From the NCBI GenBank assembly GCA_021827785.1, contig JAKAUF010000360.1, positions 1 through 38,741 on the forward strand: a DNA stretch of 38,741 nucleotides, given 5' to 3'. Positions 1-15,855 of this stretch are shown here, one piece after another. A model generated the notes under the pieces. That model had not been told where the DNA came from. It searched no databases and worked only from the letters and a program-made list of their open reading frames with translations. Every line of letters starts with the position of its first letter. Position 1 is the stretch's first letter. Made by a program: the position numbers and the translations under genes. This DNA comes from Acidobacteriota bacterium (GTDB lineage Bacteria; Acidobacteriota; Terriglobia; Terriglobales; SCQP01).

Positions 1-1
1 T

Positions 2-634
2 AAACAACTGGCGGAAGAGTTGCGGGGCATGGGGCGGCGGGCGGAGACGGTCTCCGCCGACGCCATAAGCCCGGAGGGCATCGCCAAGCTGTTCAGCTTT
101 GTCGAGAGCCAGTTCGGGCACCTGGACATTTTCGTCAACAACGCGATTGACGTGGCGGCGTTTGGGCCGCTGATGCGGCAGAAAAAAGACGCCTGGGAGC
201 ACACGGTGCAACGCAACACGACGGCGCTGCTGCTGAGCGCGCAGAAATGCCGGGCGCTGATGAAGGGGCGGCGGGGCAAGATCCTCAGCCTTTCCAGTCT
301 GGGCTCGACGTATGTCATACCGGGGTACGCGCCGATTGGGGTCACCAAGGCCTCGACCGAGGCGCTGACGCGGTATTTGGCGGTGGAGCTGGGCAAGGAG
401 GGCATCAACGCCAACACGCTCTCCGCCGGGCCGGTGGATACCGACGCGCTGCGGCTGTTCTCCACCTATGGCCAAATGAAAGAAGCCTGCGAGACGCTCT
501 CCCCGGCCGGGCGCATCGGCACGGTGGAGGACGTGGCGGAGGTGGCGGTGTTTCTCTGTTCGGACGCCGCCAATTGGATCTACGGGCAGACGATTATCGC
601 CGATGGGGGCCTGTCCCTCATGAGCTTGCGCTAG
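2..634 (+). CDS. fabL: Enoyl-[ACP] reductase, FabL-type short-chain dehydrogenase (5' end cut by window edge)
   Basis: The reading frame is open to the left window edge ([11 protein letters not shown]...). SDR catalytic region LSLSSLGS...[12 protein letters not shown] (S...YxxxK). The stretch [32 protein letters not shown] closely parallels the remembered B. subtilis FabL [32 protein letters not shown]. C-terminal GQTIIADGG. Confidence 0.8.
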   Translation, partial: [210 protein letters not shown]

Positions 635-684
635 GCGGGCCGCGACGCCGCCAGCGACATTGAGAAACGGAAGGAAATACGCAA

Positions 685-1167
685 ATGCCGCCAGTCAATA
701 GCGCCGAGGAAGTTTTACAAATCCGGGAGACCGCCGACCGCGTGTTGGCCAGCCGCCATGCTGAGATTCTGGCCACGGTGCAAGCCGCCATCGCCGAGGT
801 GCTCGGATGCGAGGTGGAAGAGGTGAAACCCAATTCCAGCCTAATGGCCGATCTGCACGCGGAATCGCTGGATTTTCTGGATCTGCTGTTCCGGTTGGAG
901 TCGGCGTTTGGCATCAAGATTCCGCGCGGCGGGATCCAGAAGGCCACGCAGGGATCGCTGAAGGAAAGCGAATTCCAGCAAAACGGCGTGCTGACGGAAG
1001 CGGCGCTGGAGCGGCTGCGGCTGCTGATGCCGGAGGTGGATCCGCAGCGGCTGCATCCGGGGCTGACGTCGCGGGAAATCCCGGCGTTGTTTACCGCCGA
1101 AACGTTTACCCGGCTGGTGGCCTGGCGCCTGGGAGACGGCGAGGCGGCGAAGGCGCAAGTAGGGTAG
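685..1167 (+). CDS. Acyl carrier protein-like protein with long C-terminal extension (160 aa)
   Basis: ATG preceded by GGAAGGA. PP-binding core ...VKPNSSLMADLHAESLDFLDLLFRLESAFGIKIP, with the phosphopantetheine Ser in an (D/E)SLD context. About 75 further residues follow the ACP fold. Confidence 0.75.
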   Translation: MPPVNSAEEVLQIRETADRVLASRHAEILATVQAAIAEVLGCEVEEVKPNSSLMADLHAESLDFLDLLFRLESAFGIKIPRGGIQKATQGSLKESEFQQNGVLTEAALERLRLLMPEVDPQRLHPGLTSREIPALFTAETFTRLVAWRLGDGEAAKAQVG

Positions 1168-1171
1168 CGCG

Positions 1172-1705
1172 GTGCGTTTCCTGCTGATTGACCGGATCCT
1201 GGAGCTGGAGCCGGGGCGGTACGCGGTGGGCGTGAAGACGCCCAGCCTGGGCGAGGACTATTTCGCCGATCACTTTCCCGGCTTCCCGGTGGTTCCCGGG
1301 GTGCTGCTGGTGGAGGCGATGGCGCAACTGGCCGGGCGGCTGATCGCGTACTCGGTGCGGGCGGAAAGCGGCGAGGTGGTGCTGCCGGTGCTGCTGGGCA
1401 TCAGCCATGCGCGGTTCCGGCGCTTTGTCCGCGCCGGGGACCGGGTGGTGATCCGCGCGGAACTGCTGGGGCTGACCGACGGCGGCGGGCGCTGCAAGGC
1501 GGAGGCGCGGGTGGAGGAGCAGTTGGTGGCGGGAGCGGAAGTGATGCTGGGGTTCGACACCGGCCGGGGCGCCGGGGTGATCCCGATGGCGGCGCGCCAG
1601 AAGCTGGAATCGTGGGCCGATGACGTGAACCGGAATTTGCTGGGCGAGGAGCTGCACGCGCGGCTGACAGCGCCGCGGGCGCCGGCCCCGGAGGCGCAGG
1701 CGTGA
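1172..1705 (+). CDS. FabZ/FabA-like 3-hydroxyacyl-ACP dehydratase (hotdog fold)
   Basis: GTG start 4 nt after the ACP stop. Motif DHFPGFPVVPGVLLVEAMAQLAG (catalytic His in HFPG, Glu in VEAMAQ) is typical of FabZ. Confidence 0.85.
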   Translation: MRFLLIDRILELEPGRYAVGVKTPSLGEDYFADHFPGFPVVPGVLLVEAMAQLAGRLIAYSVRAESGEVVLPVLLGISHARFRRFVRAGDRVVIRAELLGLTDGGGRCKAEARVEEQLVAGAEVMLGFDTGRGAGVIPMAARQKLESWADDVNRNLLGEELHARLTAPRAPAPEAQA

Positions 1706-3042
1706 CGGCGGGGGGCAATGGAGCGGGCCGAAACGGTGCGGGACGCCGCCGCCGGGTGGTGATCACCGGCCTGGGCGCGGTCACGCCGGTGGGCCAAACG
1801 GTGGAGGAGACGTGGCGGTCGCTGCAAGCGGGGCGCTGCGGCATTGATCGCATCTCGGTCTTCGACGCCAGCACCTTCGAGACGCAGATCGGCGGCGAGG
1901 TGCGGGGATTCCGCTTCGACCAACTGGGCGCGCCGGCGGCGGTGGCGGAGGTGCTGGACCGCAAGAACAGCTTTGGCTTCGCGGCCGCGCAACAGGCGAT
2001 GGTGGATGCCGGGCTGGCGCGGGCGGACGCGGCGCCGGGTCCGCCGTCGGAGGAGTTGGTGGAGCCGACCCGGTTCGGCATCAGCCTGGGCACGGAAGGG
2101 CGGCGGGACCGGCTATTGCCGGAGCTGCGCAGCCGCAAACTGGCGCCGGCGGGTTTGGAGGCGCGGCGCCAGGCGCTGGCGGAAGTGCCCGGGGATGAAT
2201 ACCTGCGCTACTCGCCGTATGGGCTGGCGTACCTGCTGAGCGGGACGTGGGGCGCGCGGGGGCCGATCACGACCATTTCCACCGCCTGCACGTCGAGTTC
2301 GCAGGCGCTGGGCTACGCGCTGGAGAAAATCCGCTACGGCGATGCGGACGTCATGTTGGCGGGCGGGGCGGAATGCCTGATGGAGCCGACGATGGTGGCG
2401 AGTTTTATTTTGCTCGGCGCGCTGTCGAAGCGGAACGATTCGCCGCAAACGGCGTCGCGGCCGTTTGACGCCACGCGCGACGGATTCGTGCTGGCGGAGG
2501 GAGCCGCGATGCTGGTGCTGGAGGATGCCTGGCACGCCTACCGGCGCGGGGCTCGCATCTACGGCGAGGTGGCGGGCTTCGGCTGCTCGATCAACGCCTA
2601 CCGGATCACGGATTCGCCGCCGGACGGGGAAGGGCCGTTTTTGGCCATGCGGGCGGCATTGGAAGACGCCGGGATTCGCGCCGAGGACGTGGATTACGTC
2701 AACGCCCACGGCACTTCGACGGTGCAGAACGACGCCAGCGAGACGATGGCGATCAAGCGCTGCCTGGGCGGGTACGCCCAGCGGGTGCCGGTGAGCTCGA
2801 CGAAATCCATGACCGGGCACATGGTGAATGCGGCCGGGGCGATCGAGGCGGTGATTTCGACGCTGGCGATTCGGGACGGGTACATTCCGCCGACGATCAA
2901 TTACGAACATCCCGACCCGGCCTGCGATTTGGACTGCGTGCCCAACACCGGGCGGCGGCAGACGGTGCGGACGGTGGTCTCGAACTCCTTCGGTTTTGGC
3001 GGGTCGAACGGCTCGCTGGTGATCCGGGCCTATGTCGCTTGA
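1702..3042 (+). CDS. Beta-ketoacyl-ACP synthase (KS, FabF/FabB-like, catalytically complete)
   Basis: GTGA start/stop overlap with the dehydratase gene. Cys-His-His triad present: TISTACTSSSQALG, VNAHGTSTVQND, STKSMTGHMVNAAG. C-terminal NSFGFGGSNGSLVI. Confidence 0.9.
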   Translation: MTAGGNGAGRNGAGRRRRVVITGLGAVTPVGQTVEETWRSLQAGRCGIDRISVFDASTFETQIGGEVRGFRFDQLGAPAAVAEVLDRKNSFGFAAAQQAMVDAGLARADAAPGPPSEELVEPTRFGISLGTEGRRDRLLPELRSRKLAPAGLEARRQALAEVPGDEYLRYSPYGLAYLLSGTWGARGPITTISTACTSSSQALGYALEKIRYGDADVMLAGGAECLMEPTMVASFILLGALSKRNDSPQTASRPFDATRDGFVLAEGAAMLVLEDAWHAYRRGARIYGEVAGFGCSINAYRITDSPPDGEGPFLAMRAALEDAGIRAEDVDYVNAHGTSTVQNDASETMAIKRCLGGYAQRVPVSSTKSMTGHMVNAAGAIEAVISTLAIRDGYIPPTINYEHPDPACDLDCVPNTGRRQTVRTVVSNSFGFGGSNGSLVIRAYVA

Positions 3043-4366
3043 GATGGAGGCGGGAGTGAACGGGCGGGGCGGCGGACGGCGCGTGGTGATCACGGGAGTG
3101 GGGCTGGTGTCGCCGCTGGGTAACGATGCCGAAACGTTGTGGCGCGAGCTGGCGGCGGGGCGCTCGGGGCTGGAGCGGGCGGAGGAGTTCGCCACCGGAG
3201 GGTTCCGCACGCAGGCCTGCGGCCGGGTCCGGGAGTTCAACCCGCGGAAACTGATCGCCGACGCCAAGACGCTGAAACTGATGACCCGGCCGGTGCGGCT
3301 GGGGGTGGCGGCCTTGGAGCTGGCGGTGGCGGACGCGCGGCTGGATTTGAGCCACGTGGATCCGTTTCGCGTCGCCTCCTACGTGGGTTCGCCGGGGCAC
3401 GCGGGCGACCGCGACGAGCTGCTGCCGGCGCTGGAGCGGGCCAGCCGCGGCGGGGACGATACGTTGGATTTGCAGGCGTTTGGCGCCGAAGGCATCGCCA
3501 CCATCAATCCCTTGTGGCTGCTGAAGAGCCTGGCCAACATCGTGCTGTATTTCGTCAGCATGAAGGTGGGGGCGCAGGGACCAAACGGCAACATCTGCAT
3601 GAGCGGCGCCGGCGGCGTGATGGCCATCGGGGAGGCGTTCCGCTGCTTGCGGCGGGGGGCGGCGGACATCGCGGTGGCGGGGGGATACGAATCGCTGCTG
3701 GAGGAGGAGCGGCTGGAGAGCTTCGAGCCGTCCGGGCTGCTGTACCTGGGCAATGGGGTGGCGGCGCAGGCCAGCCGGCCGTTTGATCGCGACCGCGCGG
3801 GGTTCGTGCCGGCGGAGGGCGCGGCGTTCGTGGTGCTGGAGGAACGCGAGGCGGCGCTGCGGCGCGGAGCGCGCATCTACGGCGAAGTCACCGGCTACGG
3901 GCTGGGCAGTCCCGGCTGCGTGGGACGGCCGAGCGAAACCGCGGAGGCCTTCCTGGGCGCGATGCAGGCGGCGGTGGCGGACGCGCGCCGCGATCCGTGG
4001 GAACTGGACGCGATTTCGGCCTACGGGCTGGGGACGGTGCAGAGCGACCGGGCGGAGGCCGAGGCGCTGAAGGCGTTGCTGACGGCGCGGGCGGCGTATG
4101 TGCCGGTGACGGCGGTGAAATCCGCGACGGGCAATTTTTCCGCGGGCTCCGGGCCGCTGGAAGTGATCGCCGGCTGCGGCGTGTTGCAGGGGGCGATGCC
4201 GGGTTTGCCGGCGATCCTGAACTGCGAGCATCCCGATCCGGATCTGGGGCTGGATTACGTGCGCGGCCGGCCGCGGGCGGGCAGCTATCGCCGGCTGTTA
4301 GTCAATTCCGCCAGCCTGTCCGGGGCCGCCGCCAGCGTGGTGCTGGAAAGCGGCGATCCGGCCTAG
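3032..4366 (+). CDS. KS-like chain-length-factor-type protein (KS-beta, no catalytic triad)
   Basis: 11-nt overlap with the upstream KS. Full-length KS fold (VVITGVGLVSPLG...), but the active-site positions read GPNGNICMSGAGGVMAIG (Gly where KS has Cys, by identical spacing), SAYGLGT (His->Tyr) and KSATGN (His->Asn). Confidence 0.8.
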   Translation: MSLEMEAGVNGRGGGRRVVITGVGLVSPLGNDAETLWRELAAGRSGLERAEEFATGGFRTQACGRVREFNPRKLIADAKTLKLMTRPVRLGVAALELAVADARLDLSHVDPFRVASYVGSPGHAGDRDELLPALERASRGGDDTLDLQAFGAEGIATINPLWLLKSLANIVLYFVSMKVGAQGPNGNICMSGAGGVMAIGEAFRCLRRGAADIAVAGGYESLLEEERLESFEPSGLLYLGNGVAAQASRPFDRDRAGFVPAEGAAFVVLEEREAALRRGARIYGEVTGYGLGSPGCVGRPSETAEAFLGAMQAAVADARRDPWELDAISAYGLGTVQSDRAEAEALKALLTARAAYVPVTAVKSATGNFSAGSGPLEVIAGCGVLQGAMPGLPAILNCEHPDPDLGLDYVRGRPRAGSYRRLLVNSASLSGAAASVVLESGDPA

Positions 4367-4429
4367 CGCCGCCGCGGGCGGCGCCGCGGGGGCGGGAGCC
4401 AATTGGGAATGGGAGCGAATGGGCAAGGC

Positions 4430-5176
4430 ATGAACCGCTTACAAGGCAAATTCGCATTGGTCACCGGGGGTAGCCGGGGCATCGGGCGCGCCGTCGCCTT
4501 GCGCTTGGCGCAGGAAGGCGCGCGGGTGGCGGTCAACTATCGGGCCAATGCCGGGGCCGCGGAGGAGGTCGTAGCCGCCATCACCGCCGGCGGCGGGCAG
4601 GGACAAGCCTTTGCCGGCGACGTCAGCCAGCCGGAGGCGGCGAAAGCCCTGGTGGAAGGGGTGGCGCAGGAGTTCGGGCGGTTGGACATTCTGGTGAACA
4701 ACGCCGGCATGGTGCGCGACGGCCTGCTGCTGACGATGGATGACGCGCAGTGGCGGCAGGTGCTGGCGACCAATTTGGACGGGGTGTTCTATTGCTGCCG
4801 GACGGCGGCGCGGATCATGTTGCGGCAGCGCTATGGGCGCATCGTCAACATGTCGTCGGTCGCGGGGGATACGCCCAACCGCGGGCAGGTGAATTACGCC
4901 GCCTCCAAGGGGGGCATCAATGCGCTGACGAAGGCCTTGGCGCAGGAGCTGGCCAGCAAGAACATCACGGTGAACGCGGTGGCGCCCGGCATGATCGAGA
5001 CCGAGATGAGCCAGGAGGTGCGGGAACTGGCGGGGCCGGAAATTCTGAAGCATATCGCCCTGAAGCGCTACGGCAAACCGGAGGACATCGCCGCGGCGGT
5101 GGCGTTCTTGGCTTCGCCGGACGCGGACTACATTACCGGCCAAGTGTTGCGCGTGGACGGGGGACTAGCCGGGTGA
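4430..5176 (+). CDS. fabG: 3-oxoacyl-[ACP] reductase (FabG-type SDR)
   Basis: LVTGGSRGIGRA (TGxxxGIG), NNAG, MSSVAG, YAASKGG (YxxxK), ITGQVLRVDGG. An alternative upstream start exists at 4403. Confidence 0.9.
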   Translation: MNRLQGKFALVTGGSRGIGRAVALRLAQEGARVAVNYRANAGAAEEVVAAITAGGGQGQAFAGDVSQPEAAKALVEGVAQEFGRLDILVNNAGMVRDGLLLTMDDAQWRQVLATNLDGVFYCCRTAARIMLRQRYGRIVNMSSVAGDTPNRGQVNYAASKGGINALTKALAQELASKNITVNAVAPGMIETEMSQEVRELAGPEILKHIALKRYGKPEDIAAAVAFLASPDADYITGQVLRVDGGLAG

Positions 5177-5964
5177 AGGCGGCGGCGGAGCGGGAACGCG
5201 AAGCGGTGGTGACGGGCAGCGGCGTGCTGCTGCCATGGGGCGTGGGGCCGGCGGCGCTGGCGGCGACGGGCGCGGCGGGCCGCATCAGCAGCTTCAATCC
5301 GCGCGAGTACATTCACAATGCCAAGGCGCTGCGGGCCATGCATCGCGGCTTCCAGTTGACCACGGCGGCGGCGGCGTTGGCCCTGAGCGCGGCGGGATTG
5401 GGCGGCGACGCGGAGGGGCTGGCGGCAGCCGGGCTGGACCCGGAACGCGCCGGGGTGGTGATCGCGGCGGCGGACATCCAGCCGGTGACGCCGGATTTGC
5501 TGGCGGTGCTGGCGGCGCAGGAGGACAGCAGCGAGCCGGCGGGATGGGGGGAGGCGGCGCTGCACGGGTTGCACCCGTTTCGCCGGCTGCACCTGCTATC
5601 GAACATGGCGGCGGCGCATGTGTCCATTCTGTTCAATTTCCAAGGCCCGAGTTTGACGCTGACCAGCGGGGCGGAGGCCGGGGCGCAGGCGCTGGAGGAG
5701 GCGGCAGGGCTGCTGGCCGAGGGGCGCGCGGACGTGGTGCTCTGCGCGGCCAGCGACTGCCCGGAACAAACGCTGACGCCGGGGGAGGGGGAAGCGGCGG
5801 TGGCGCTGGTGCTGGAGGCGCGCGGCGTGGCGCAGCGGCGCGGCGTGCGCGGCGCGCAAGACTGGCGGGGCGGAGAACCGGACGCGTCGTGGGCCGAAGG
5901 GTGGCCGCAGTGCGCCGCGTTATTGGCGGCGTCGCGCGCCGCCGCTCGGGTGGAGGCGGGGTAG
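5173..5964 (+). CDS. Truncated KS N-terminal-domain-like protein (short CLF-like partner, no active-site Cys)
   Basis: GTG overlaps the fabG stop (GTGA). The sequence AVVTGSGVLLPWG...NMAAAHVSILFNFQGPSLTLTSGAEAGAQALEEA...DVVLCAASD follows the KS N-domain pattern, with Ala at the Cys position. The protein ends after about 263 aa, with no C-terminal His-containing domain. The first 141 codons of track ORF 4750..5964 are a frame artifact over fabG. Confidence 0.65.
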   Translation: MKAAAEREREAVVTGSGVLLPWGVGPAALAATGAAGRISSFNPREYIHNAKALRAMHRGFQLTTAAAALALSAAGLGGDAEGLAAAGLDPERAGVVIAAADIQPVTPDLLAVLAAQEDSSEPAGWGEAALHGLHPFRRLHLLSNMAAAHVSILFNFQGPSLTLTSGAEAGAQALEEAAGLLAEGRADVVLCAASDCPEQTLTPGEGEAAVALVLEARGVAQRRGVRGAQDWRGGEPDASWAEGWPQCAALLAASRAAARVEAG

Positions 5965-5966
5965 GG

Positions 5967-7214
5967 ATGGCGCGGCGGCGGGAGGTCTGGATCAGCGGCG
6001 TGGGAGTGGTGAGCGCGCTGGGCGTGGGCGTGGCGGCGCACCGCGCGGCGCTGGCGGCGGGCCGGGGAGGAATCAACTGGATCCGGCATTTTCCCAGCAG
6101 CGGTTTTCCGGTGCGCATCGCCGGCGAAGCGCCGGCCGCGGGGCTGCCGCCGGGTCCGGGGCGGCTGCACTATTTCGCCGCGGTGGCGCTGGCGGAGGCG
6201 CTGGACCAGGCGGCGCTGCCGCGGCCCGAAGGGGGCGACGATGCGGCGCGAGCGGTGGTGTGGGCGGTGGGCAAGCCGGCGCTGCCGGTGGACGCAATGG
6301 CGGGCTGGGCGGCGACGGGGAAGGGATGGGACTGGAGCGAACTGCGGCGGCGTTATATCCGGAGCTTGCAGGAAAAGCAGCTGACCCCCGCGGATCTGCT
6401 GCGGCGCTTGGCGCGCGCCGGCGGGGCCGGGGGGCGGCGGGTGGCGTGCTACACCGCCTGCGCGTCGGGCAACGACGCGCTGGGCATGGGCAAGCGGATG
6501 ATCGAGCGCGGCGAGGCCGAGGTGGTGCTGGCCGGCGGAGCGGACTCCCAGGTGGACCCGTTGAGTTTGCTGGAATTTGAACTCCTGGCGGCGCTGGCCC
6601 ATCCCGCGCCGGGCGAGGATCCGGCGACGGTGTGCCGGCCGTTCGACCAGCGGCGCAGCGGTTTCGTGGTGGGCGAGGGCGCCGGAGCGCTGGTGTTGGA
6701 ATCGGAGGATCACTTGCGCCGCCGCGGCGGGGAGCCGCTGGCGCGGCTGGCGGGGTATGGCAGTTCGCTGGACGCCTTTGGCCTCACCAAATGTCATCCG
6801 GAGGGCCGGGGCGCGGCGGCGGCGATGCGCGCGGCGCTGGCCGACGCGGGCGCAACGCCCACGGCGGTGGACTACATCAACGCGCACGGCACGGGAACGG
6901 TGCTGAACGACCGCGCCGAGGCGGCGGCCATCCATCGGGTGTTTGGCGCCGCGGCGCGGGAGGTGGCGATCAGCAGCACCAAGGCGATGACCGGGCATTT
7001 GATCGCCGCCGCCTCGGCGGTGGAGGCGGTGTTGTCGGTGCTGGGGTTGGAGGACGGATTTATTCCGCCCTCGCTGAACTATCGCGACCCGGATCCGGAA
7101 TGCGACCTGAACGTGGTCACCGGCCGCGGGCGGCGGGGGCCGGTGCGGATGGTGCTGTCCAATGGGTTTGGGTTCGGCGGACAGAACGCCTGCGTGGTGC
7201 TGGCCAGGGCATGA
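5967..7214 (+). CDS. Beta-ketoacyl-ACP synthase (second catalytically complete KS)
   Basis: ATG 3 nt after the preceding stop. CYTACASGNDALG (Cys), INAHGTGTVLND (His), STKAMTGHLIAAAS (His), NGFGFGGQNACVVL. Confidence 0.9.
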   Translation: MARRREVWISGVGVVSALGVGVAAHRAALAAGRGGINWIRHFPSSGFPVRIAGEAPAAGLPPGPGRLHYFAAVALAEALDQAALPRPEGGDDAARAVVWAVGKPALPVDAMAGWAATGKGWDWSELRRRYIRSLQEKQLTPADLLRRLARAGGAGGRRVACYTACASGNDALGMGKRMIERGEAEVVLAGGADSQVDPLSLLEFELLAALAHPAPGEDPATVCRPFDQRRSGFVVGEGAGALVLESEDHLRRRGGEPLARLAGYGSSLDAFGLTKCHPEGRGAAAAMRAALADAGATPTAVDYINAHGTGTVLNDRAEAAAIHRVFGAAAREVAISSTKAMTGHLIAAASAVEAVLSVLGLEDGFIPPSLNYRDPDPECDLNVVTGRGRRGPVRMVLSNGFGFGGQNACVVLARA

Positions 7215-7302
7215 ACCCGAGAAACCATGGGACGGCGGGCCGGAGGCGCGGCGCGGGCGGGAGCGCGGCCGAGGCGAGGTATGCCATTGTGGAGGAAGGG
7301 CC

Positions 7303-8640
7303 ATGCTAGAGGGCATTTTCGATTTTCTCGACCGCCGCTTCCTGCGCACGCCGGAAAACCGGCTGTGGATGGCGCAGCGGCTGCCGCCGGGGTTGATTAC
7401 GCGCTTGCAGGCGGGCAAGTTCGCCGCGACGGTGCGCTATGCGGCGCAGCATTCGCGGTTTTACCAGGAAAAGTTCCGCGAGCACGGCATTGACCCGGCC
7501 CAGGTGCGCACCCATGCCGATCTGGGCGACTTCTTCACGACGCCGGAAGATTTGCGGGAACGGCCGGTGGAGGATTTTCTCTGCGCCAAGCCGGAGTTCG
7601 GTTTCGAAACCACCGGGACCTCGATGGGCATCAACAAGCGCGTGTATTTCTCCTACCAGGAGATGTTCGATTACGGCCGCGACGGGGCGGTGGGGTTGTA
7701 CAACCTGGGGCTGCGCCCGGAGGATGTGGTGGCGGACGGGTTTGACTACTCGTTTTGGAACGCGCCGTTCACCGCCTATTACTCGATCATGGCGATCGGG
7801 GCGTTTCACGTCATCGGCGCCTTCGTCGAACCGCAGGAGTTTTACGACCGCATCAAGGTGTACAAGCCGAACGTGATCATGGGCGTGCCGACGCATCTGG
7901 TGCGCGTGACCGAGGTGGCGGAACGCTGCGGCACCTGGCCGGTGAAGCTGGTGTTCCTGGGCGGCGAGAACCTGAGCGAGCGCACGCGGCAGTACATGCA
8001 GGGCGTCTGGCGCGGGGCGAAAGTGCATCTGAGCTACGGCCAGACCGAAGCCTTCGGCATGAACGGGGTGGAATGCCCGGAAAAGGGCGGCTATCACCTC
8101 GGCGCCCTGGCGCTGACCAGCGAGATCTTGAACCCGGATGAGGAAGGCTATGGGGAACTGGCGTACACGACGCTGAACCGCACGGTCATGCCGCTGATTC
8201 GCTACCGCTCGGCGGACATCACGCGCTGGGCCAGTGACGGGGAATGCCATTGCGGGCTGCGGATCATGCCGCGGATCGGCAAGATCATCGGCCGCAGCGA
8301 CGAGCTGATCAACTGCTCGATGGGCAACATCAGCCCGTACTGGTTCGAGGAGATGCTGCGCGGCGTTCCGGAGGTGACCGACGACTGGCAGGTGTTCGTG
8401 CGGCGGGGCGACCGCGATGACCGCATCGAGTTCCATTTGGAACTGGTCAACGGCGCGTCGCCGGAGGAAGTGAAAAATCTCATTTTCCGCAACATCGAGA
8501 GCCGGTTTCCGGATTGCTGGCGGTATTATCAGAAGCGATTTTTCGAATTCGATTTCCAGTTTCACGCGCCGCGGACGATTAGCGAAGGCCGCAAACTGAA
8601 GCGGCTGATTGACGCGCGGCGGGATGCGTGGAATCAATAA
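7303..8640 (+). CDS. Phenylacetate-CoA ligase / coenzyme F390 synthetase-like adenylate-forming enzyme
   Basis: ATG preceded by GGAGGAAGGG. PaaK-family pattern: FYQEKFREHGIDP, ETTGTSMGINKRVYFS (P-loop-like), SYGQTEAFG, RYRSADI, CHCGL..PRIGKIIGRSDELI..MGNISP. Confidence 0.8.
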   Translation: MLEGIFDFLDRRFLRTPENRLWMAQRLPPGLITRLQAGKFAATVRYAAQHSRFYQEKFREHGIDPAQVRTHADLGDFFTTPEDLRERPVEDFLCAKPEFGFETTGTSMGINKRVYFSYQEMFDYGRDGAVGLYNLGLRPEDVVADGFDYSFWNAPFTAYYSIMAIGAFHVIGAFVEPQEFYDRIKVYKPNVIMGVPTHLVRVTEVAERCGTWPVKLVFLGGENLSERTRQYMQGVWRGAKVHLSYGQTEAFGMNGVECPEKGGYHLGALALTSEILNPDEEGYGELAYTTLNRTVMPLIRYRSADITRWASDGECHCGLRIMPRIGKIIGRSDELINCSMGNISPYWFEEMLRGVPEVTDDWQVFVRRGDRDDRIEFHLELVNGASPEEVKNLIFRNIESRFPDCWRYYQKRFFEFDFQFHAPRTISEGRKLKRLIDARRDAWNQ

Positions 8641-8693
8641 GCGGAGCCGCCGTCGGCCGCGGCTCACCAATTGCCAGGAAAGGCGGAGAGATC

Positions 8694-10010
8694 ATGCCCA
8701 CACTAGCCCAGAATGGCGGCGCCCGCGCCGTGCCCGCGAATGCGGCCAAGACCTATTGGCCGGTGGTCACGCCGGAGGACAAGCGCGCCGTGGCCGCGGT
8801 GCTGGACCGCAACGTGTTGTGGGCGATGACGACGCTGGAAGGGCTGCGGTGCCCGGAGCAGGATGCGCTGGAGCGCGAATTCGCGGCCTTCCTGGGAGCG
8901 CGGCACGCGATCGCGGTGAACGGCGGCACGGCCGGCCTGCACATGGCATTGGTGGCCAGCGGGGTGCAGGCGGGCGACGAGGTGATCACCAGCGCGTATT
9001 CCTTCCTGGCGACGCCGGCGGCGATCTTGCACGCGGGCGCGATTCCGGTCTTCGTGGATATTGACCCGCGGACCTTTAATTTGGATCCGGGCAAGATCGA
9101 GGCCAAGATCACGCCCCGCACGCGGGCCATCCTGGCGGTGGACATTCACGGACTGTGCGCGGATTACGATGCCATCGAAGCCATCGCCAAACGGCATGGC
9201 CTGCTGGTGGTGGAGGACGCCTGCCAAGCGCCAGGAGCGACGTATCATGGCCGCGGAGCAGGGCGGCTGGGCCGGGCGGCGGGCTTCAGCGTCAACGGGA
9301 CCAAAAACTTCTCCGTGGGCGAAGGCGGCTTCATGGTCACCGACGACGACGAGGTGTACTACCGGGGCAACTGGCTGAAGCAGGTAGGCGAAACGTTGCC
9401 GGCGGACAACCCCACGATGCGCCATCAGCACCTGCTGGCGTGGAACTACCGGGTGCAGGAGATGCCCTGCGCGCTGGCGCGGGTGCAACTGCGCCGCCTG
9501 GCGGAGGTGAATGAACGGGGACGGCGCAATGCGGCGATCCTGGATGGATATCTCCAAGACATCCCCGGCCTGCGGGCGCCGTACATACCCGCGGGTTGCG
9601 TTTCCGTGTATCACAAATACCGGGTGACGCTGGAGCCGGAAGCGTTGGACGCGCCGCCGCGAGGACACGCGCTGCGCGACGCGTTCATGGCGGCCTTGAC
9701 CGCGGAAGGCGTGGACGTGGACCTGTGGGGCACGGCGCCGCTGCCGGCGCATCCGATGATCAGCGCCCGCCACGGCTTTGGCCGGGGCCTGCCCTGGAGC
9801 TTGCATCCCGAGGTGGACTATAGCGACAGCGCCGACCAATACCCGATCACGCAGCGCATGTTCGCCGAGTCCTTTTGCCTCGGCAACGATGAGTATCCGA
9901 TCTACGCCCAGAGTGAGAGCCTGATGCACGCCTATGGCGAAGCATTGCGCAAGGTCGCCCGGCATGCGGGCGAGTTGCACGCCGCGGCGGCCTGGCAAAC
10001 CGCGACCTAG
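8694..10010 (+). CDS. DegT/DnrJ/EryC1/StrS-family PLP-dependent aminotransferase
   Basis: ATG preceded by GGAGAG. NGGTAGLHMAL, ITSAYSFLATPAAILHAGAIPVFVDID, VVEDACQAPGATY, and the PLP-lysine context FSVNGTKNFSVGEGGFMVTDD. Confidence 0.85.
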   Translation: MPTLAQNGGARAVPANAAKTYWPVVTPEDKRAVAAVLDRNVLWAMTTLEGLRCPEQDALEREFAAFLGARHAIAVNGGTAGLHMALVASGVQAGDEVITSAYSFLATPAAILHAGAIPVFVDIDPRTFNLDPGKIEAKITPRTRAILAVDIHGLCADYDAIEAIAKRHGLLVVEDACQAPGATYHGRGAGRLGRAAGFSVNGTKNFSVGEGGFMVTDDDEVYYRGNWLKQVGETLPADNPTMRHQHLLAWNYRVQEMPCALARVQLRRLAEVNERGRRNAAILDGYLQDIPGLRAPYIPAGCVSVYHKYRVTLEPEALDAPPRGHALRDAFMAALTAEGVDVDLWGTAPLPAHPMISARHGFGRGLPWSLHPEVDYSDSADQYPITQRMFAESFCLGNDEYPIYAQSESLMHAYGEALRKVARHAGELHAAAAWQTAT

Positions 10011-10107
10011 GCCGGCAGCATACGGTGCGGCCGCGGCGGGACCGGGCCGGCGCCGGGAATTGCAACGCCACGGGCCACGGCTTCATCTCCTTATTAGGAG
10101 TATCGCC

Positions 10108-11151
10108 ATGGCCAGTCCCGCCCGCGTGCCCTTGAACCCGCAGCGGCGTGGACCGCAGGCCGAACGGCTATACGCCGCGCTGCAAAAGCGCATCGTGGGC
10201 CAAGACGCCGCCCTGGGTCCGGTGGTGGACGCGGTACAGACGTTTTTGGCGGGAATGCAGGCGCAAACCCGGCCGGTGGCCAATTTTTTATTTTTGGGGC
10301 CGACGGGAACGGGCAAAACGCATGTGGTGGAGTCGCTCGCCGCCGCGCTGTTTCAACACCCACGGGCGGCGATCAAAGTGGACTGCGGAGAATTCCAGCA
10401 CAGCCATGAGATCGCCAAGCTGATTGGCTCCCCGCCGGGATACCTGGGACACCGCGAGACGCATCCGGTGTTGACGCAAGAAGCGCTGAACCAGCACCAC
10501 ACGGCGGAAATGCCGCTTTCGCTGGTGTTGTTCGATGAAATCGAAAAGGCCTCCGATGCGCTGTGGCAGTTGCTGCTGGGAATTCTGGACCAGGCGACGC
10601 TGACGCTGGGCGACAATCGCCGCACCTCGTTCGCCCAAGCCTTGATCTTCATGACCAGCAATTTGGGCGCGGCGGAGATGAGCCAATTGCTGACACCGGG
10701 ATTGGGCTTTGCTCCTCCGGGACGGGGCGACCTGGAACGGCGGCTGGCGACGGTGGCGACGGCGGCGGCGCGGCGCAAATTTTCTCCTGAGTTCTTCAAC
10801 CGCCTCGATTCGGTGGTGGTGTTCCATCCCTTGGATCACGGCCAGCTGGAACGCGTGCTGGATTTGGAACTGGAGTGGGTACGGGAACGGCTGGGCCACG
10901 CGGGCGCGCCGGCCGCGTTCCACTTTCGCTGCACGACGGCGGCCCGGGAGCTGCTATTGCGCGACGGCGCCGACCGCAAATACGGGGCGCGGCATTTGAA
11001 ACGGGCGATCGAGCGGCTGCTGGTGCATCCGCTGGCGAATTTGATCGCCACGCGGCAGGTTTTGCCGCAGGACGTGCTGGTCGTGGATGTGGATGAGACG
11101 GGTACGGCCCTGGCCTTTGCGCGGGAGCAGGCCGCGCGGCATCGCGGGTAA
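10108..11151 (+). CDS. Stand-alone AAA+ ATPase resembling the D2 module of ClpA/ClpC/ClpB (347 aa)
   Basis: ATG preceded by AGGAG. IVGQDAAL, Walker A LGPTGTGKT, Walker B LVLFDEIEKA, sensor-1 IFMTSNLG, SPEFFNRLD, sensor-2 YGARHLKRAIERLL. No N-domain, D1 or middle domain. Confidence 0.85.
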   Translation: MASPARVPLNPQRRGPQAERLYAALQKRIVGQDAALGPVVDAVQTFLAGMQAQTRPVANFLFLGPTGTGKTHVVESLAAALFQHPRAAIKVDCGEFQHSHEIAKLIGSPPGYLGHRETHPVLTQEALNQHHTAEMPLSLVLFDEIEKASDALWQLLLGILDQATLTLGDNRRTSFAQALIFMTSNLGAAEMSQLLTPGLGFAPPGRGDLERRLATVATAAARRKFSPEFFNRLDSVVVFHPLDHGQLERVLDLELEWVRERLGHAGAPAAFHFRCTTAARELLLRDGADRKYGARHLKRAIERLLVHPLANLIATRQVLPQDVLVVDVDETGTALAFAREQAARHRG

Positions 11152-11163
11152 GGGCTCCGCGGC

Positions 11164-13089
11164 TTACTGGATTGGGATGTAGGTGACCGCGCTGGCGGCG
11201 TTCACTTGGTTGCTGTCGGCGGGGCTGGACGGGGCCGGCGCCGCTTCCATCGCCGCGAGATCCATGCGCGCCAAATACTTGCCATCGCTGCGCAGGGCCA
11301 ACCCGTAGATGGTGCTGTTGAGGCCGATCATGACCGTTTCCGCTTGCGGGGCGGTGGCATTGGTCCAATCCACGCCATCCGGTCCGGCGCCGAGTTGCGC
11401 CCAGCGAATGGCGGCCGGCGCCGCCGGGGCGCCGGCGAAGGGGGCGCTGGGCAGGGTCGCCACCGCCAAACAGCCGCCGGAGTTGCCCAACCAGGCCAAA
11501 TGGCTGCTGGGCTCCAACTGCGCGGCCCGCCATCCTCCGCTACAGGCGCTGGTGACGCTGAACTGGGCCGCGGGGGCGGTGATGGCGCCGCCGGAGGCGG
11601 TGGCGGCGTTAAAGTTAATGGCCGTGTATTCGCTGCTGGCGGCATCGGCCAGGAGACCGAGCGAAGTGCTGGGATCAAAGGAGGCAGCGGTTAATTCCGA
11701 CCCCAAAGTGAACCCAGCGGTGCTGGGCAGGGAATACGACTGGACGGCTCCGGTGGCGAGATTGATGACATTGAGGCCGGAGCCGCTGGAGGTGAAGTAC
11801 GGAGCGAAGATGCGCTGGGTGGCGGGATCGTAGGCGATGTTTTCCGCCGCGGGAGCGGCGATGAGGCTGGAGGCGGCGCCGGTGGCGAGATTCAGGGTCA
11901 GATAGCCGGACGCGGTGTCGAGAATCGCCTCATTGCGGCTGGCGTCCACCACGGCGGCGCAGACGCCGCAGGTGAAGCCGTCACTGAAGGTCGTGGTGGC
12001 GCTGTTCGGGATGGCGTAGGTATTGGTGACGGTGTCGTTGGTCGCGTCCACCACCACCAAGCTGTTGGTGGTGGCGCTGGTGACCGCGACGGTGTTGGTC
12101 TGCGGGTCAGCCGCCGCCGCGGTGGGAGCGAAGCCGCTGGGCATGGCGATGTCCAACGCCGCGCCGCCGCTGGTCAGTTGCTGTCCGGTGTCGCCGTTGA
12201 CCACCGCGACATGGTTGGCGCCGGCCAGGGGCACATAAACCTTATTGGCGAGAATGGGCGCGCCGCTGGAGCTGGCGCCGACGGATTCGATCAGATCCGC
12301 CAACGCGGAGGAGGCCGCGGGGCTGTCCGGTTCCACCACGACGTTCACCGGATTGGCGGGCGTGCTGTTCGGGCTGGTGATTCCGATCTGAGTCAAACCG
12401 GCGGCGTTCACCGTGACCGGGACGGTTAACGACTGGAAGGGCGCGGTAGCGCCGCTGGGGGCGACGACCGCGCCGGCGGCGCCGCTGCTGATGGTGGCGA
12501 CGGAGTTGGAGTATAAGAACTGGCCGTGCAACGTAAGGGTATAGCTGTTGCCCTGGACCATGGCCGGAACCGATTGCGGATTGCTGCCGCTGGTCTGCAC
12601 CGTGACCGAGGTCAGCACCGGCGCCGGGGTGGTCAGTTGCACCTGGGCCTGGGCGTGCGCCGAACTCAAAGCCTGGGCGCTGACGGTGACGACAAAGATG
12701 TCGTGGGCCGGTGGGAGGGCGGGCGCGGTGTAAAGACCGGTGGAATCAATGGTGCCGTAGGGGGCAGAGCCGTCGGGCTCCTTGCCGCCAGGCAGGTCGT
12801 TGCCGCTCACCGGGTCCACGATGGACCAACTGACCGTGTGATCAGTGCTGTAGTAGACCGCGGCCTTAAATTGCTGCGTTCCCGGCGAAATCTTGCCGCT
12901 GCTGTCCTCGGTGGCCAAGGGAATGACGACGGGGCCGAACCCGAGCGTTCCCGCCGACGGGTTGATGGTCACCGAAGGTTGGGGCGGCGGAATATAGTAA
13001 TTCTGGCATCCGGCCAGCAGCGCCGCGAACGCCAAGGTGGACAGGCAAAGGAGAAGTGGGCGCGGACGCGGAAAGGGCAAAAGCACCAT
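11164..13089 (-). CDS. Secreted lipoprotein with Ig-like domains and YVTN-type beta-propeller repeats
   Basis: Signal peptide with lipobox LSTLAFAALLAGC. Ig-like segment (YGTIDSTGLYTAP). Repeated strand patterns such as VYVPLAGANHVAVVNGDTGQ, NSLVVVDATNDTVTNTYAIP and GLNVINLATGAVQSYSLP. Product name is generic. Confidence 0.65.
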   Translation of the reverse strand: MVLLPFPRPRPLLLCLSTLAFAALLAGCQNYYIPPPQPSVTINPSAGTLGFGPVVIPLATEDSSGKISPGTQQFKAAVYYSTDHTVSWSIVDPVSGNDLPGGKEPDGSAPYGTIDSTGLYTAPALPPAHDIFVVTVSAQALSSAHAQAQVQLTTPAPVLTSVTVQTSGSNPQSVPAMVQGNSYTLTLHGQFLYSNSVATISSGAAGAVVAPSGATAPFQSLTVPVTVNAAGLTQIGITSPNSTPANPVNVVVEPDSPAASSALADLIESVGASSSGAPILANKVYVPLAGANHVAVVNGDTGQQLTSGGAALDIAMPSGFAPTAAAADPQTNTVAVTSATTNSLVVVDATNDTVTNTYAIPNSATTTFSDGFTCGVCAAVVDASRNEAILDTASGYLTLNLATGAASSLIAAPAAENIAYDPATQRIFAPYFTSSGSGLNVINLATGAVQSYSLPSTAGFTLGSELTAASFDPSTSLGLLADAASSEYTAINFNAATASGGAITAPAAQFSVTSACSGGWRAAQLEPSSHLAWLGNSGGCLAVATLPSAPFAGAPAAPAAIRWAQLGAGPDGVDWTNATAPQAETVMIGLNSTIYGLALRSDGKYLARMDLAAMEAAPAPSSPADSNQVNAASAVTYIPIQ

Positions 13090-13327
13090 CCAGGCTGGAT
13101 TTTGCGGCGCCGCCCCTGATTCCCGGGCGGCCCAGTGGGTAAAAGGGATTATACAAGAGGGCTGGCCTACAGGGCAGAGGGCAAATGCCGAAGTTGTGGG
13201 CTAAAAGGCGCAATCGCGGAATCTCAGGCGAACCCGCCTTCCCAAGGGGGCGAACGGGGCGGCTGGCTCGTCGGGCTGCCGCTGCCCGGCGCAACGGGCC
13301 GCGGTGACAAGCCTGGTGCGCCGGGCG

Positions 13328-13861
13328 CTAGGCGGCGCGGCGGCGGCGCGGCGCTTCGCTGCTCGCGTCCTCGGCCATGCCCTCGGTCCAGTGCAGCTTG
13401 CTCGCCTTCAGCAGTTCCAGCACGAGCTTGGCGGTTTCCTGCTCTTCCCGCAGCGTTTCCCGCAGCAGGCGGGCCGCATCGCGATGGCCCATTTGCTGCG
13501 CCAGGAAGCTGAGGGTCTCGTAGGCGGAGGTTTCGTAGCGCTCGATTTGCAGGGCCGCGAGCAGCGTGTTGAAATCCCGCAATTCGGGACTGAGACCCTC
13601 GGCTTCGGCGCTGTGCTTCTCCGCCATCAACCCCTCCAAACCGGGGCAAGCCGTTTCCCGGGACTCGGCGCCGATGGCATGAAAGACCGCTTCCAAACGC
13701 TGGAGATGGCCTTCGGTCTGCTTGCGATGGCGCGCGAAGGCGTGCTTGGCGTCGCCGCGCTGGGTGTCGCGCTCGGCGTCGGAGAGGACGGCGAGCAGTT
13801 GTTTTTCGGTGCTTTGGAGACGCTGAAGTTGATGGATCCAGAACTCATGCGCGGTTTGCAT
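13328..13861 (-). CDS. DUF892 (YciE/YciF-like) ferritin-like stress protein
   Basis: Internal ATG at 13861 (MQTAHEFWIHQLQRLQSTEKQL...). The pattern EKQL / H..QTEGHLQRLE / CPGLEGL / LQIERYETSAYETL / LLRETLREEQETA matches the remembered E. coli YciF. The track ORF's 50-codon N-terminal extension would overlap the upstream gene. Confidence 0.85.
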   Translation of the reverse strand: MQTAHEFWIHQLQRLQSTEKQLLAVLSDAERDTQRGDAKHAFARHRKQTEGHLQRLEAVFHAIGAESRETACPGLEGLMAEKHSAEAEGLSPELRDFNTLLAALQIERYETSAYETLSFLAQQMGHRDAARLLRETLREEQETAKLVLELLKASKLHWTEGMAEDASSEAPRRRRAA

Positions 13862-13926
13862 CCTCGCCCTCCAGGCATGGCGCCTGGCGAGGTTGGATGC
13901 GCCGGCCCGGGGCCGCGGCCACGCGC

Positions 13927-15243: not shown

Positions 15244-15259
15244 GGAGGCATTGTAGCCG

Positions 15260-15770: not shown

Positions 15771-15855
15771 GGCAAAAGGGCGCGGCCCCCGCGAGCGGCT
15801 GCGGAATTCGGGGCGATTCCAGTGGTGCGGGCCGCTGGCGGATTAAAATGGTGCC

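Follow-up and report, generated by a model that had tools for sequence, protein, structure and literature searches.

What would be made by a compact set of type II FAS/PKS-like genes that ends in an adenylating ligase and an aminotransferase? This question is raised by contig JAKAUF010000360.1 of an Acidobacteriota bacterium (assembly GCA_021827785.1; Terriglobales; SCQP01), analysed here as one window of 38,741 nt. Ten co-directional genes lie tightly packed on its forward strand at the positions given in the original prediction, and Pfam and NCBIfam E-values from 4e-9 (ACP) to 1e-134 show that they are real (Table 1). The starts of the 3-ketoacyl-ACP reductase (KR), the ligase Lig2 and the aminotransferase were corrected to 4409, 7303 and 8694, based on gene calls on identical contigs and RBS-like motifs. 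The four junctions behind the claim of tight packing were all read directly in the sequence: GTGA overlaps at 1702-1705 and 5173-5176, an ATG at 3032 within the preceding gene, whose stop codon is 3040-3042, and a 2-nt gap between the TAG at 5962-5964 and the ATG at 5967. Domain and model searches also confirmed the complete set of KR, dehydratase (DH) and enoyl reductase (ER) with ketosynthases (KS) and an ACP of its own, as well as the terminal ligase and DegT aminotransferase.

Table 1. Genes of the cluster and its co-directional 3' neighbour in the window, with the basis of each assignment.
Feature	Positions	Strand	Basis
FabL-type enoyl-ACP reductase (ER), 3' 210 codons, cut by left window edge	2-634	+	FabL models, PDB, Y-x6-K
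Dedicated ACP, 160 aa, with conserved ~80-aa C-terminal extension	685-1167	+	PP-binding domain
FabZ/ApeI-like 3-hydroxyacyl-ACP dehydratase (DH), 177 aa	1172-1705	+	PF07977, HFPxxPxxPGV
KS-A, active FabF-like ketosynthase, 446 aa, ~33-aa insertion	1702-3042	+	C/H/H triad, FabF models
CLF-A, full-length, catalytically dead KS-like partner, 444 aa	3032-4366	+	G/Y/N at C/H/H columns
FabG-type 3-ketoacyl-ACP reductase (KR), 255 aa	4409-5176	+	TIGR01830
sKS, truncated, KS N-domain only, 263 aa, presumed KS-B partner	5173-5964	+	PF00109, N-terminal only
KS-B, second active ketosynthase, 415 aa	5967-7214	+	C/H/H triad
Lig2, PaaK-like adenylate-forming ligase, 445 aa	7303-8640	+	AMP-binding, AMP-binding_C_2
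DegT/DnrJ/EryC1/StrS-family PLP aminotransferase, 438 aa	8694-10010	+	PF01041
AAA_2/ClpB-D2-only ATPase, 347 aa, neighbour	10108-11151	+	domain search

The cluster had been suspected to be truncated on the left, and contigs encoding an identical KS do carry further genes upstream. There, the operon is headed by a true myo-inositol-3-phosphate synthase (MIPS; 433 bits with PDB 7nwr, which is MIPS BT_1526 of B. thetaiotaomicron), preceded by Lig1, a paralogue of Lig2 with 50% identity. The full order is Lig1, then MIPS, FabL-type ER, long ACP, DH, KS-A, CLF-A, KR, sKS, KS-B, Lig2 and the DegT aminotransferase, and all but the first two genes of this conserved 12-gene biosynthetic operon of uncultured soil Terriglobales lie in the window. 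Strict collinearity holds across eight or more species-level lineages, all uncultured Terriglobales MAGs; the whole block is seen in L007, L010, L014, L018 and L020, collinearity reaches the contig limits in L015-L017, L019, L022 and L023, and protein identity drops to 47-70%. Gene order, whose conservation the original prediction proposed to check, is thus kept in related genomes. In a scan of 185,579 species genomes, sKS-specific patterns were matched by only 10 loci, all in MAGs and none in cultured Terriglobales. Every cluster-bearing genome is a MAG, and the comparison was made locus by locus. Upstream of MIPS lies a gap of variable length (147-702 nt), which carries a conserved inverted repeat of its own.

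In other Acidobacteria and one Betaproteobacteria MAG, the orthologous genes form a rearranged cluster (type B; loci L024-L026, L033 and L037). All core genes are kept in the order MIPS-ER-ACP-(MBL)-DH-KS-CLF-KR-KS3-KS4, next to a divergent arm made up of ligase-AT-ZnADH-IMPase, and the full-length core proteins are 42-61% identical to those of the window (44-50% for DH). Type B additionally encodes an inositol monophosphatase, an MBL hydrolase and an IolM-class inosose dehydrogenase, the Zn-ADH, which scores 485 with the NCBIfam model for IolM scyllo-inosose 3-dehydrogenase (curated cutoff 450; best PDB match 3ip1). The MIPS-ER-ACP and ligase-aminotransferase adjacencies outlast the rearrangement. 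Both architectures, different as they are, physically link FAS-like genes with enzymes of inositol metabolism.

Alignment of the catalytic columns to C164, H304 and H341 of E. coli FabF confirmed the predicted two pairs of an active KS and a dead partner. CLF-A is orthologous to the type-B KS2, whose columns read G/C/N. Like ApeC, sKS has an alanine in the Cys column and lacks the entire C-terminal half with both histidines; its gene is less conserved than any other of the core, and its type-B counterpart is the full-length, 403-aa KS3 (33-40% identity). Long insertions had been claimed for both active KS, and this holds for KS-A (446 aa, against 413 aa in FabF), whose type-B orthologue has 413 aa and no insertion, but not for KS-B, which is divergent in its N-terminal part rather than longer. 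KS-A exceeds the cutoff of the NCBIfam subfamily model PRK07314 (448.5 bits, cutoff 387) and stays below that of the fabF equivalog (447 bits, cutoff 493.75), as does KS-B with 342 bits. In BLAST, KS-A is closer to FabF (44% identity, 313 bits) than to ApeR (36%, 225 bits) or ApeO (126 bits). KS-B shares 45-48% identity with the ketosynthases of LpxB-linked sets.

The ER has FabL as its best NCBIfam match (cutoff 328; the fragment scores 200 bits and the complete 254-aa protein of identical contigs 262) and B. subtilis FabL (3oic) as its best PDB match (196 bits, with the best FabG at 141); its Y-x6-K motif was read in the sequence. In the ACP, the PP-binding domain spans residues 31-80, and 57 aa align with E. 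coli AcpP at 42% identity. Its C-terminal extension is common to the type-B ACPs (53-56% identity) and recurs in the ACPs, 128-132 aa long, that belong to LpxB-linked KS sets (35-40%). The DH matches PF07977 at 8.9e-18 and FabZ models with 107 bits, slightly under their cutoffs of 113 and 155; its motif was likewise read in the sequence, and the precomputed Pfam list includes ApeI-like. The KR reaches 307 bits with TIGR01830 (cutoff 297.75) and shares 44% identity with FabG of E. coli. In agreement with the original prediction, fabD and fabH are absent from the window and from every related locus searched, and a search for housekeeping FAS genes found neither acc nor plsX at the cluster.

For Lig2, the best NCBIfam match is the DVU_1553 family (134 bits, cutoff 300), and the best PDB matches of Lig1 are phenylacetate-CoA ligases (107 bits), with known amide ligases at ~38 bits. 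The ligases are far closer to phenylacetate-CoA ligase than to amide ligases and could equally load an ACP or form a CoA ester. PaaK-like ligases are able to form amides, e.g. ClxA (PMC12519233). The aminotransferase matches PF01041 at 8e-85, reaches no NCBIfam equivalog cutoff and aligns over its full length with 8gyh (269 bits), while all other PDB entries score 184 bits or less and inosose aminotransferases 172-180 bits. The same sequence, 8GYJ, was identified as Fic25 (PMC11726168). Type-B orthologues of the aminotransferase are 52-58% identical and lie in one operon with the IolM-class dehydrogenase and the inositol monophosphatase.

The cluster is very probably a specialised, non-housekeeping FAS/PKS-like system functionally tied to inositol chemistry. 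The operon is conserved and uncharacterised, and couples private FAS/PKS machinery with inositol-derived, amino-sugar-like chemistry. The original prediction is supported in its main claims, with MIPS and the second ligase beyond the left edge changing how the chemistry is read. Judged from gene content, the chances are even that a FAS-like chain and an inosamine would be joined by a ligase; the specific product, an amide of the two, is put forward more tentatively, and the compound would probably represent a novel class of fatty-acyl aminocyclitol.

In such a pathway, malonyl units would be condensed on the dedicated ACP, their supply being placed in trans because the cluster has no FabD. KS-B and its truncated partner might catalyse an early or priming step and KS-A with CLF-A elongation under chain-length control, and the KR, DH and ER would yield a mostly saturated chain. 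Lig1 may attach a starter acid to the ACP, which would make up for the His-His half that the third KS has lost in this lineage. In parallel, MIPS would convert glucose-6-phosphate to inositol-3-phosphate, from which a phosphatase and a cyclitol dehydrogenase, encoded in cis in type B and presumably at other sites in these Terriglobales genomes, would form inosose. The DegT aminotransferase would convert this to inosamine, and the adjoining Lig2 could adenylate the acid and form an N-acyl aminocyclitol by joining it to the amine. As a precedent, the aminocyclitol of hygromycin A is assembled by a MIPS together with phosphatase, dehydrogenase and aminotransferase enzymes (PMC10949010). No inositol monophosphatase, cyclitol dehydrogenase, thioesterase or MBL hydrolase was found in the available DNA of the window's cluster type, and hence three steps of the route have no assigned enzyme here.

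The original prediction allowed for an amino group on the acyl chain; with MIPS upstream and the type-B monophosphatase and dehydrogenase near the aminotransferase, the nitrogen is more likely located on the inositol-derived ring. It is unlikely, albeit worth weighing, that the aminotransferase instead acts on an ACP-tethered keto group, such as 3-ketoacyl-ACP, to give a fatty acid aminated at the beta or another position, with inositol or its phosphate as an O-linked head group or in a separate role. Against the inosose route, Fic25, the nearest solved relative, aminates a carrier-protein-bound linear keto acid, and no cyclitol dehydrogenase is encoded in cis in clusters of the window's type; the ketone of the Fic25 substrate, however, has flanking hydroxyls and is chemically near inosose. 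The cispentacin aminotransferase also works on an ACP-bound ketone, beside a KS/short-partner pair and a loading ligase, but belongs to class III, not to the DegT family. Moreover, the dehydrogenase and monophosphatase co-transcribed with the type-B aminotransferase would have no role in such a scheme.

Rather improbable is a chance neighbourhood, in which the elongation set serves an envelope lipid, as in lipid-A very-long-chain systems, and MIPS feeds ordinary phosphoinositol lipids with no joint product. Sets to which the trio of long ACP, KS and KS-like protein is related lie between lpxB and genes for lipid-A acyltransferases (L012, L013), yet no lipid-A genes are close to the present cluster. 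MIPS is of the Bacteroides inositol-lipid type and follows a variable gap, but lies directly upstream of ER-ACP in both architectures and in distant lineages despite the rearrangement. A CDP-alcohol phosphatidyltransferase is encoded at 15856-16482; it is PgsA/ClsA-like, reaches only 31 bits with the inositol-phosphate synthase model (cutoff 180), and genes on the opposite strand lie between it and the cluster.

We consider an aryl-polyene-like or other polyene pigment cluster (a highly reducing type II PKS) very improbable. The likeness to aryl-polyene clusters noted originally is confined to architecture. As in ApeO-ApeC, one KS stands beside a short partner reduced to the N-domain, and the cluster further encodes another KS, a FabG-like KR, a dedicated ACP, an adenylating enzyme and a DH for which Pfam lists an ApeI-like match. 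The likeness does not extend to KS-A, which is nearer to FabF, or to the DH, which has no BLAST match to ApeI or ApeP at 1e-3; the FabL-type ER is conserved in both cluster types, and LolA, MMPL, GT, LPLAT, thioesterase and methyltransferase genes are all absent. A cispentacin-type cluster was rejected, as the Amc comparison fails and the aminotransferase class differs. With neither comparison holding and a literature search in which the cluster was not found described, no characterised cluster is matched.

That the cluster is the primary fatty acid synthase is hardly credible: the set is complete, with KR above the FabG equivalog and KS-A above a FabF subfamily cutoff, but both active KS are under the fabF equivalog cutoff, only two of the four KS-like proteins have an intact active site, fabD, fabH, acc and plsX are missing, the set is linked to MIPS, ligases and an aminotransferase, and it was found in some uncultured lineages only. 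Its prediction as an orphan operon is upheld. The best 120 relatives of KS-A, too, are cluster orthologues followed by proteins from other phyla; of two of the latter inspected, one lies within another specialised cluster and one is solitary, with no fab operon around either.

The ATPase gene that follows as the eleventh co-directional gene is not conserved with the cluster, being missing 3' of the aminotransferase in L007, L017, L018, L020 and L022 and present in L010, L014, L015, L016, L019 and L023, and it probably lies outside the pathway.

The ten genes in the region 2-10010 lie back to back on the + strand, and the products assigned to them by Pfam and NCBIfam models agree with the list given in the original prediction. 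The start/stop overlaps and the 2-nt gap between the genes were likewise read from the sequence exactly as described there. The window has a G+C content of ~68-70%.

Genes of the cluster in the window and the adjoining ATPase gene
Product	Position	Strand	Remarks
SDR (ER), left-truncated	from 2	+	first gene of 2-10010; best model enoyl-ACP reductase FabL
ACP		+	160 aa
FabZ-like dehydratase (DH)		+	
KS-A	1702-3042	+	446 aa
KS-like protein (CLF-A)	3032-4366	+	444 aa
KR, FabG	from 4409 (corrected start)	+	equivalog cutoff passed, 307 vs 297.75
Short KS-like protein (sKS)	5173-5964	+	263 aa; KS N-terminal domain only
KS-B	5967-7214	+	415 aa
Ligase 2	7303-8640 (corrected start)	+	PaaK/F390-like AMP ligase
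Aminotransferase (AT)	8694-10010 (corrected start)	+	DegT family, PF01041 8e-85
AAA_2 ATPase	10108-11151	+	stand-alone ClpB-D2-type AAA+, 347 aa, no N-domain or D1

The KS-like proteins were aligned to FabF of E. coli (NC_000913). KS-A and KS-B have kept the Cys-His-His triad; CLF-A carries Gly, Tyr and Asn in the respective columns, and in sKS the Cys is replaced by Ala and the entire C-terminal half is missing. These columns bear out the proposal that each active KS is accompanied by a catalytically dead partner. Of the long insertions attributed to both active proteins, only those of the first can be upheld, as the first KS is longer than FabF and the second is not. KS-A with its dead partner CLF-A makes up a pair of the classical kind, which would suit the control of chain length. 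KS-B and sKS resemble in architecture the ApeO-ApeC pair of aryl-polyene (APE) clusters and also the KS pairs beside lpxB in two related metagenomic loci (L012 and L013). The FabF equivalog score was reached by none of the proteins (TIGR03150, cutoff 493.75; KS-A 447, KS-B 342, CLF-A 270), and KS-A passed the looser PRK07314 subfamily cutoff (448.5 vs 387). The type II PKS KS model PRK07103 gave 222-226 bits, compared with 342-447 on the FabF models. The best PDB match of the ER is 3oic with 196 bits, versus 141 for FabG. With a FabG-type KR, a FabZ-like DH and a FabL-type ER, the set would produce a mostly saturated chain, growing on the dedicated ACP with malonyl-ACP supplied by FabD of the host.

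The DNA to the left of the window could be followed on public contigs. Thirteen of them code for exactly this 446-aa KS, and three of the 13 reach further upstream (L001-L003; L003 is the NCBI MAG GCA_027389475.1). Leftward from the window edge, these complete the ER (254 aa) and encode a 428-aa inositol-1-phosphate-synthase protein and, after a 285-378-nt gap, a 449-aa AMP ligase (ligase 1), followed by an mglA-like GTPase gene and then divergent TPR, glmU-like and serS genes. The 428-aa protein matches PDB 7nwr, the MIPS BT_1526 of Bacteroides thetaiotaomicron (PMC9246714), over its full length with 433 bits and is, by this similarity, a genuine MIPS. On identical contigs, the myo-inositol-3-phosphate synthase expected of an inosamine pathway is thus encoded immediately left of the window. 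Ligases 1 and 2 are paralogues with 50% identity and most resemble phenylacetate-CoA ligase; on NF045666 (NCBIfam, DVU_1553-family AMP-dependent ligase) they score 172 and 134, below the cutoff of 300. The GTPase is an MglA orthologue (255 bits).

The spacer between ligase 1 and MIPS measures 147-702 nt and contains ~48-nt direct repeats (L001 6700-6811; also in L002, L014, L010 and L007). Its last ~90 nt are conserved and include an AT-rich inverted repeat, TTAAC-N5-GTTAA (TTAAC-N5-ATTAA in L007), which in a 70% G+C genome looks like a putative operator. No RNA family was detected in the window and in L014 with Rfam at the gathering threshold, and promoter and terminator counts in window 1-13500 were no higher than in shuffled sequence.

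Among 5.8 billion proteins sKS has ~10 close relatives, of which the named ones are labelled Terriglobales. Patterns specific to the short KS, drawn from an alignment of these relatives, were run against 185,579 species genomes, each species being represented by a single genome, and revealed 10 loci, all from MAGs, labelled Terriglobales, Terriglobia, Acidobacteriales or Acidobacteria. When 14 proteins of L001 were mapped onto these loci by tblastn, the order ligase1-MIPS-ER-ACP-DH-KS-CLF-KR-sKS-KS-ligase2-AT (type A) was strictly collinear wherever the contig was long enough, in agreement with the expectation that the gene order is kept in related genomes. In L001 the 12 genes span 5177-18306. 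Across type A loci, identity goes down to 47-57% in sKS and to 66-82% in the remaining proteins. Neither flanking gene belongs to the cluster: mglA is missing in L020 and the downstream AAA+ ATPase gene in five loci, and both are therefore neighbours rather than members. Searches with AT and with KS-A each returned ~40 clusters (90% level) of Terriglobales orthologues with at least 65% identity, so the family is wider than the ten pattern loci.

Homologues of AT with 53-58% identity occur in a rearranged orthologous cluster, type B (L024-L026). Among the homologues in the same search list, P0071 stems from a Betaproteobacteria MAG, and P0126 bears the label Acidobacteria. One arm of type B reads MIPS-SDR-ACP(152 aa)-DH-KS-KS-KR-KS-KS, interrupted by an opposite-strand gene for an MBL-fold hydrolase, and the divergent arm consists of AMP ligase, aminotransferase, Zn-ADH and Inositol_P phosphatase. 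As matches to the window proteins, those of the type B core rank best in a reciprocal-type comparison, the full-length ones being 42-61% identical (DH 44-50%). The counterpart of the truncated sKS, the third KS, is full length in type B (403 aa, 33-40% identity), has kept both His and carries His at the Cys column, which would be compatible with decarboxylative priming. Used as query in a metagenome scan, this third KS yielded 14 further loci. The two long ones, L033 and L037, have the phosphatase nearby, together with genes for a B12-binding radical SAM enzyme and a Sfp-type PPTase. The radical SAM enzyme (L033 13133-14767, - strand; L037 14798-16429, + strand; 87% mutual identity) adjoins the type B cluster and the PPTase and might serve product methylation or other tailoring; L033 additionally encodes a VTT/DedA protein.

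The type B Zn-ADH passes the NCBIfam cutoff for IolM, scyllo-inosose 3-dehydrogenase (485 vs 450), with 3ip1 as its best solved relative, and the inositol monophosphatase is present in L024-L026, L033 and L037. The gene content of type B thus physically ties MIPS, inositol phosphatase, cyclitol dehydrogenase and a DegT aminotransferase to the FAS-like set. The same four, MIPS, phosphatase, dehydrogenase and aminotransferase, have been proposed to form the aminocyclitol of hygromycin A (PMC10949010). In type A, by contrast with type B, phosphatase, dehydrogenase and MBL hydrolase are all missing from the DNA examined, which has an extra ligase instead: the window and all Terriglobales-type loci lack an inositol monophosphatase, and the type A cluster of the window has no cyclitol dehydrogenase in cis. 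The FabL-type ER is conserved in both cluster types. As a candidate for the absent dehydrogenase this SDR was ruled out by its Y-x6-K motif and its best match to FabL, and also because it co-occurs with the separate IolM-class enzyme in type B.

The rearrangement between types A and B leaves two adjacencies intact, MIPS-ER-ACP and ligase-aminotransferase. The latter suggests that the amine product of AT is the acceptor of the adjoining ligase, and PaaK-like ligases that form amides are known, e.g. ClxA (PMC12519233). From these gene contents we predict an N-acyl aminocyclitol as the product. In type A, ligase 1 may load the starter acid, since this type has lost the third-KS half and gained a second ligase, a correlation. 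Tentatively, and with the balance somewhat against it, the clusters could make a hitherto undescribed, glycerol-free class of lipids or signals in abundant but uncultured soil Acidobacteria and some other bacteria, in which a chain-length-defined fatty acid from a private KS/CLF type II synthase is amide-linked to an inositol-derived aminocyclitol by the PaaK-like ligase acting as amide synthetase. If the product is an N-acyl aminocyclitol, the stable chromosomal position in Terriglobales would point to a role in the cell envelope rather than to a sporadic antibiotic.

Amination of the ACP-bound chain by AT, instead of an inosose, is a live alternative. The closest solved relative of AT is 8gyh (269 bits, compared with 172-180 bits to solved inosose aminotransferases). 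Its sequence is identical to that of 8GYJ, the entry of Fic25 (PMC11726168), and Fic25 aminates a carrier-protein-bound keto acid. That MIPS stands beside the FAS-like set by coincidence is unlikely, as the two cluster architectures speak against it.

A housekeeping type II FAS would share the elongation-cycle activities, which are all of FabF/FabG/FabZ/FabL/AcpP descent (KS-A is 44% identical to E. coli FabF, KR 44% to FabG, and the ER best matches FabL). This explanation fails, however, in specific respects. Queried by tblastn, E. coli FabD and FabH matched neither the window nor any of 17 related loci, as anticipated for a set without fabD and fabH; the KS partners are dead, the ACP is extended, and the genes are taxonomically restricted and embedded with inositol and amination genes. 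Instead of a taxon-wide presence that includes cultured members, the sKS-specific scan returned MAGs throughout. After its own orthologues, the nearest relatives of KS-A come from other phyla. Two distant ones were checked, one (53%) in another specialised cluster and one (49%) a stand-alone Planctomicrobium gene; no fab operon is near either, and they do not inform the product. The 53% relative lies in L045 8270-18284, with the order GT2, ApeI-like DH, KS, 731-aa KS-like protein, FabD-like acyltransferase, KS, KR and an OYE/dienoyl-reductase-like flavoenzyme.

In hygromycin A, the aminocyclitol is amide-linked to an acid made by discrete ligase, ACP, KS, KR and DH proteins. Likened by described functions, the hyg cluster of Streptomyces hygroscopicus follows the same aminocyclitol logic, with MIPS Hyg18, phosphatase Hyg25, inositol dehydrogenase Hyg17 and aminotransferase Hyg8 (PMC10949010). 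The present cluster differs in its iterative KS/CLF elongation with an ER, so that a long reduced chain is expected rather than the one-step cinnamate of hygromycin A. In addition, the type B dehydrogenase is an IolM-class Zn-ADH and not a Gfo/Idh/MocA enzyme, sugar, methyltransferase and methylenedioxy genes are lacking, and the hosts are Acidobacteria, not actinomycetes.

The APE cluster of E. coli CFT073 (apeA-R) resembles the present one (see also PMC8358021) in the pairing of an active KS with a short KS-N-only 'chain length factor' (ApeO-ApeC). Further common features are a second KS (ApeR in APE), a FabG-like KR, hot-dog dehydratases, an adenylating enzyme and dedicated ACPs; neither sKS (263 aa) nor ApeC (240 aa) has the Cys or the C-terminal half. 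ER, MIPS and aminotransferase, in contrast, have no place in APE, which carries genes for LolA/MMPL export, GT, LPLAT, thioesterase and methyltransferase, none of which occur in the present cluster. Compared with the CFT073 annotation, no LolA-like/MMPL export, GT, LPLAT or thioesterase genes were found in the window or the upstream DNA. KS-A scores 313 bits to FabF versus 225 to ApeR (36% identity) and 126 to ApeO, and DH has no match to ApeI or ApeP at 1e-3. The proposed likeness to aryl-polyene clusters consequently holds for the short-partner KS architecture and not for sequence orthology, export genes or the absence of an ER, and membership in APE was ruled out by the ER, the missing genes and the low KS and DH similarity. 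The polyene subgroup of highly reducing type II PKSs, with KS/CLF pair, KR and DH, was rejected as well, because it is defined by having no ER.

The cispentacin/coronafacic-acid system (AmcB-H) is similar in that a dedicated ACP receives an acid from an adenylate-forming enzyme and a KS has a short non-catalytic partner; it also includes a FabZ-like enzyme, enoyl reduction and an aminotransferase acting, in Amc, on an ACP-bound ketone (PMC10698177). That aminotransferase belongs to class III, however, and Amc performs a single elongation without a CLF pair or inositol genes. All NCBIfam Amc equivalog scores stayed far under their cutoffs (AmcF 212/325, AmcG 19/80, AmcE 44/140, AmcB 18/80), and membership was rejected.

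In L012 (2358-8963) and L013 (59-5657), lpxB, in part lpxD, a dead KS-like protein, a long ACP, a KS, a DUF374/lipid-A acyltransferase and an SDR follow each other. Both sets have the ACP family with C-terminal extension in common with the cluster (35-40% identity over ~125 aa), an active KS (42-48% to KS-A and KS-B) with a dead KS-like protein, and an SDR closest to the ER. They differ in their setting among lpxB/lpxD and the acyltransferase, in having one KS pair, and in lacking MIPS, ligase and aminotransferase. Probably they are systems devoted to extending the fatty acids of lipid A. They resemble rhizobial acpXL-fabF2XL-fabF1XL, which serves very-long-chain lipid-A fatty acids.

The claim that the cluster matches no characterised system is thus sustained against APE, cispentacin and housekeeping FAS, and no description of it was found in 8 million full texts; nor was one found of an iterative KS/CLF fatty-acid machine together with an inositol-to-aminocyclitol branch in Gram-negative bacteria. 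The parts belong to known families; what is new is the way they are combined, the two architectures and the confinement to uncultured soil lineages. In soil, Acidobacteria rank with the most abundant bacteria, and most of them resist cultivation; their lipids serve as environmental biomarkers, their specialised metabolism is almost unexplored, and the cluster family is conserved across many uncultured lineages. If true, an N-acyl aminocyclitol would be a new lipid or natural-product scaffold and entail a new role for PaaK-like ligases and DegT aminotransferases. With twelve genes, the operon is small enough to be synthesised and expressed, which makes the prediction directly testable.

To the right of the cluster, the AAA+ ATPase gene adjoins one for a 641-aa protein (11164-13089, - strand) that matches no Pfam or NCBIfam model; the two accompany the cluster in some lineages only. 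The genes beyond are unrelated (M23 peptidase, GNAT, EF-P, PEPCK, AIM24, a kinase/regulator pair, thiolase, MgsA, UbiD, DUF72 and a HlyD/MacB/OEP efflux set). A CDP-alcohol phosphatidyltransferase gene (15856-16482, + strand) ~5.8 kb past the cluster was rejected as an inositol-lipid synthase, the protein being PgsA/ClsA-like (83-90 bits, under cutoffs) with only 31 bits on the inositol-phosphate synthase model. At 30318-37718 (+ strand), three consecutive HlyD-family adaptor genes precede those for a MacB/FtsX permease and for an outer-membrane efflux protein. A gene for an ATP-binding subunit was not identified in this stretch. Very long antisense ORFs, up to 854 aa, occur on the - strand at 5313-7418 (701 aa), 2113-3267, 2897-4231 and 26648-29212, the last without family match. 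They are taken to be by-products of the high (70%) G+C content, as the first three run antisense to genes with strong family matches. The GC skew changes from positive (1-22 kb) to negative (~22.5 kb onward), whatever the gene strand (region ~19500-23500), so that the cumulative skew peaks near 22-23 kb, and this might mark a replication-related strand switch.
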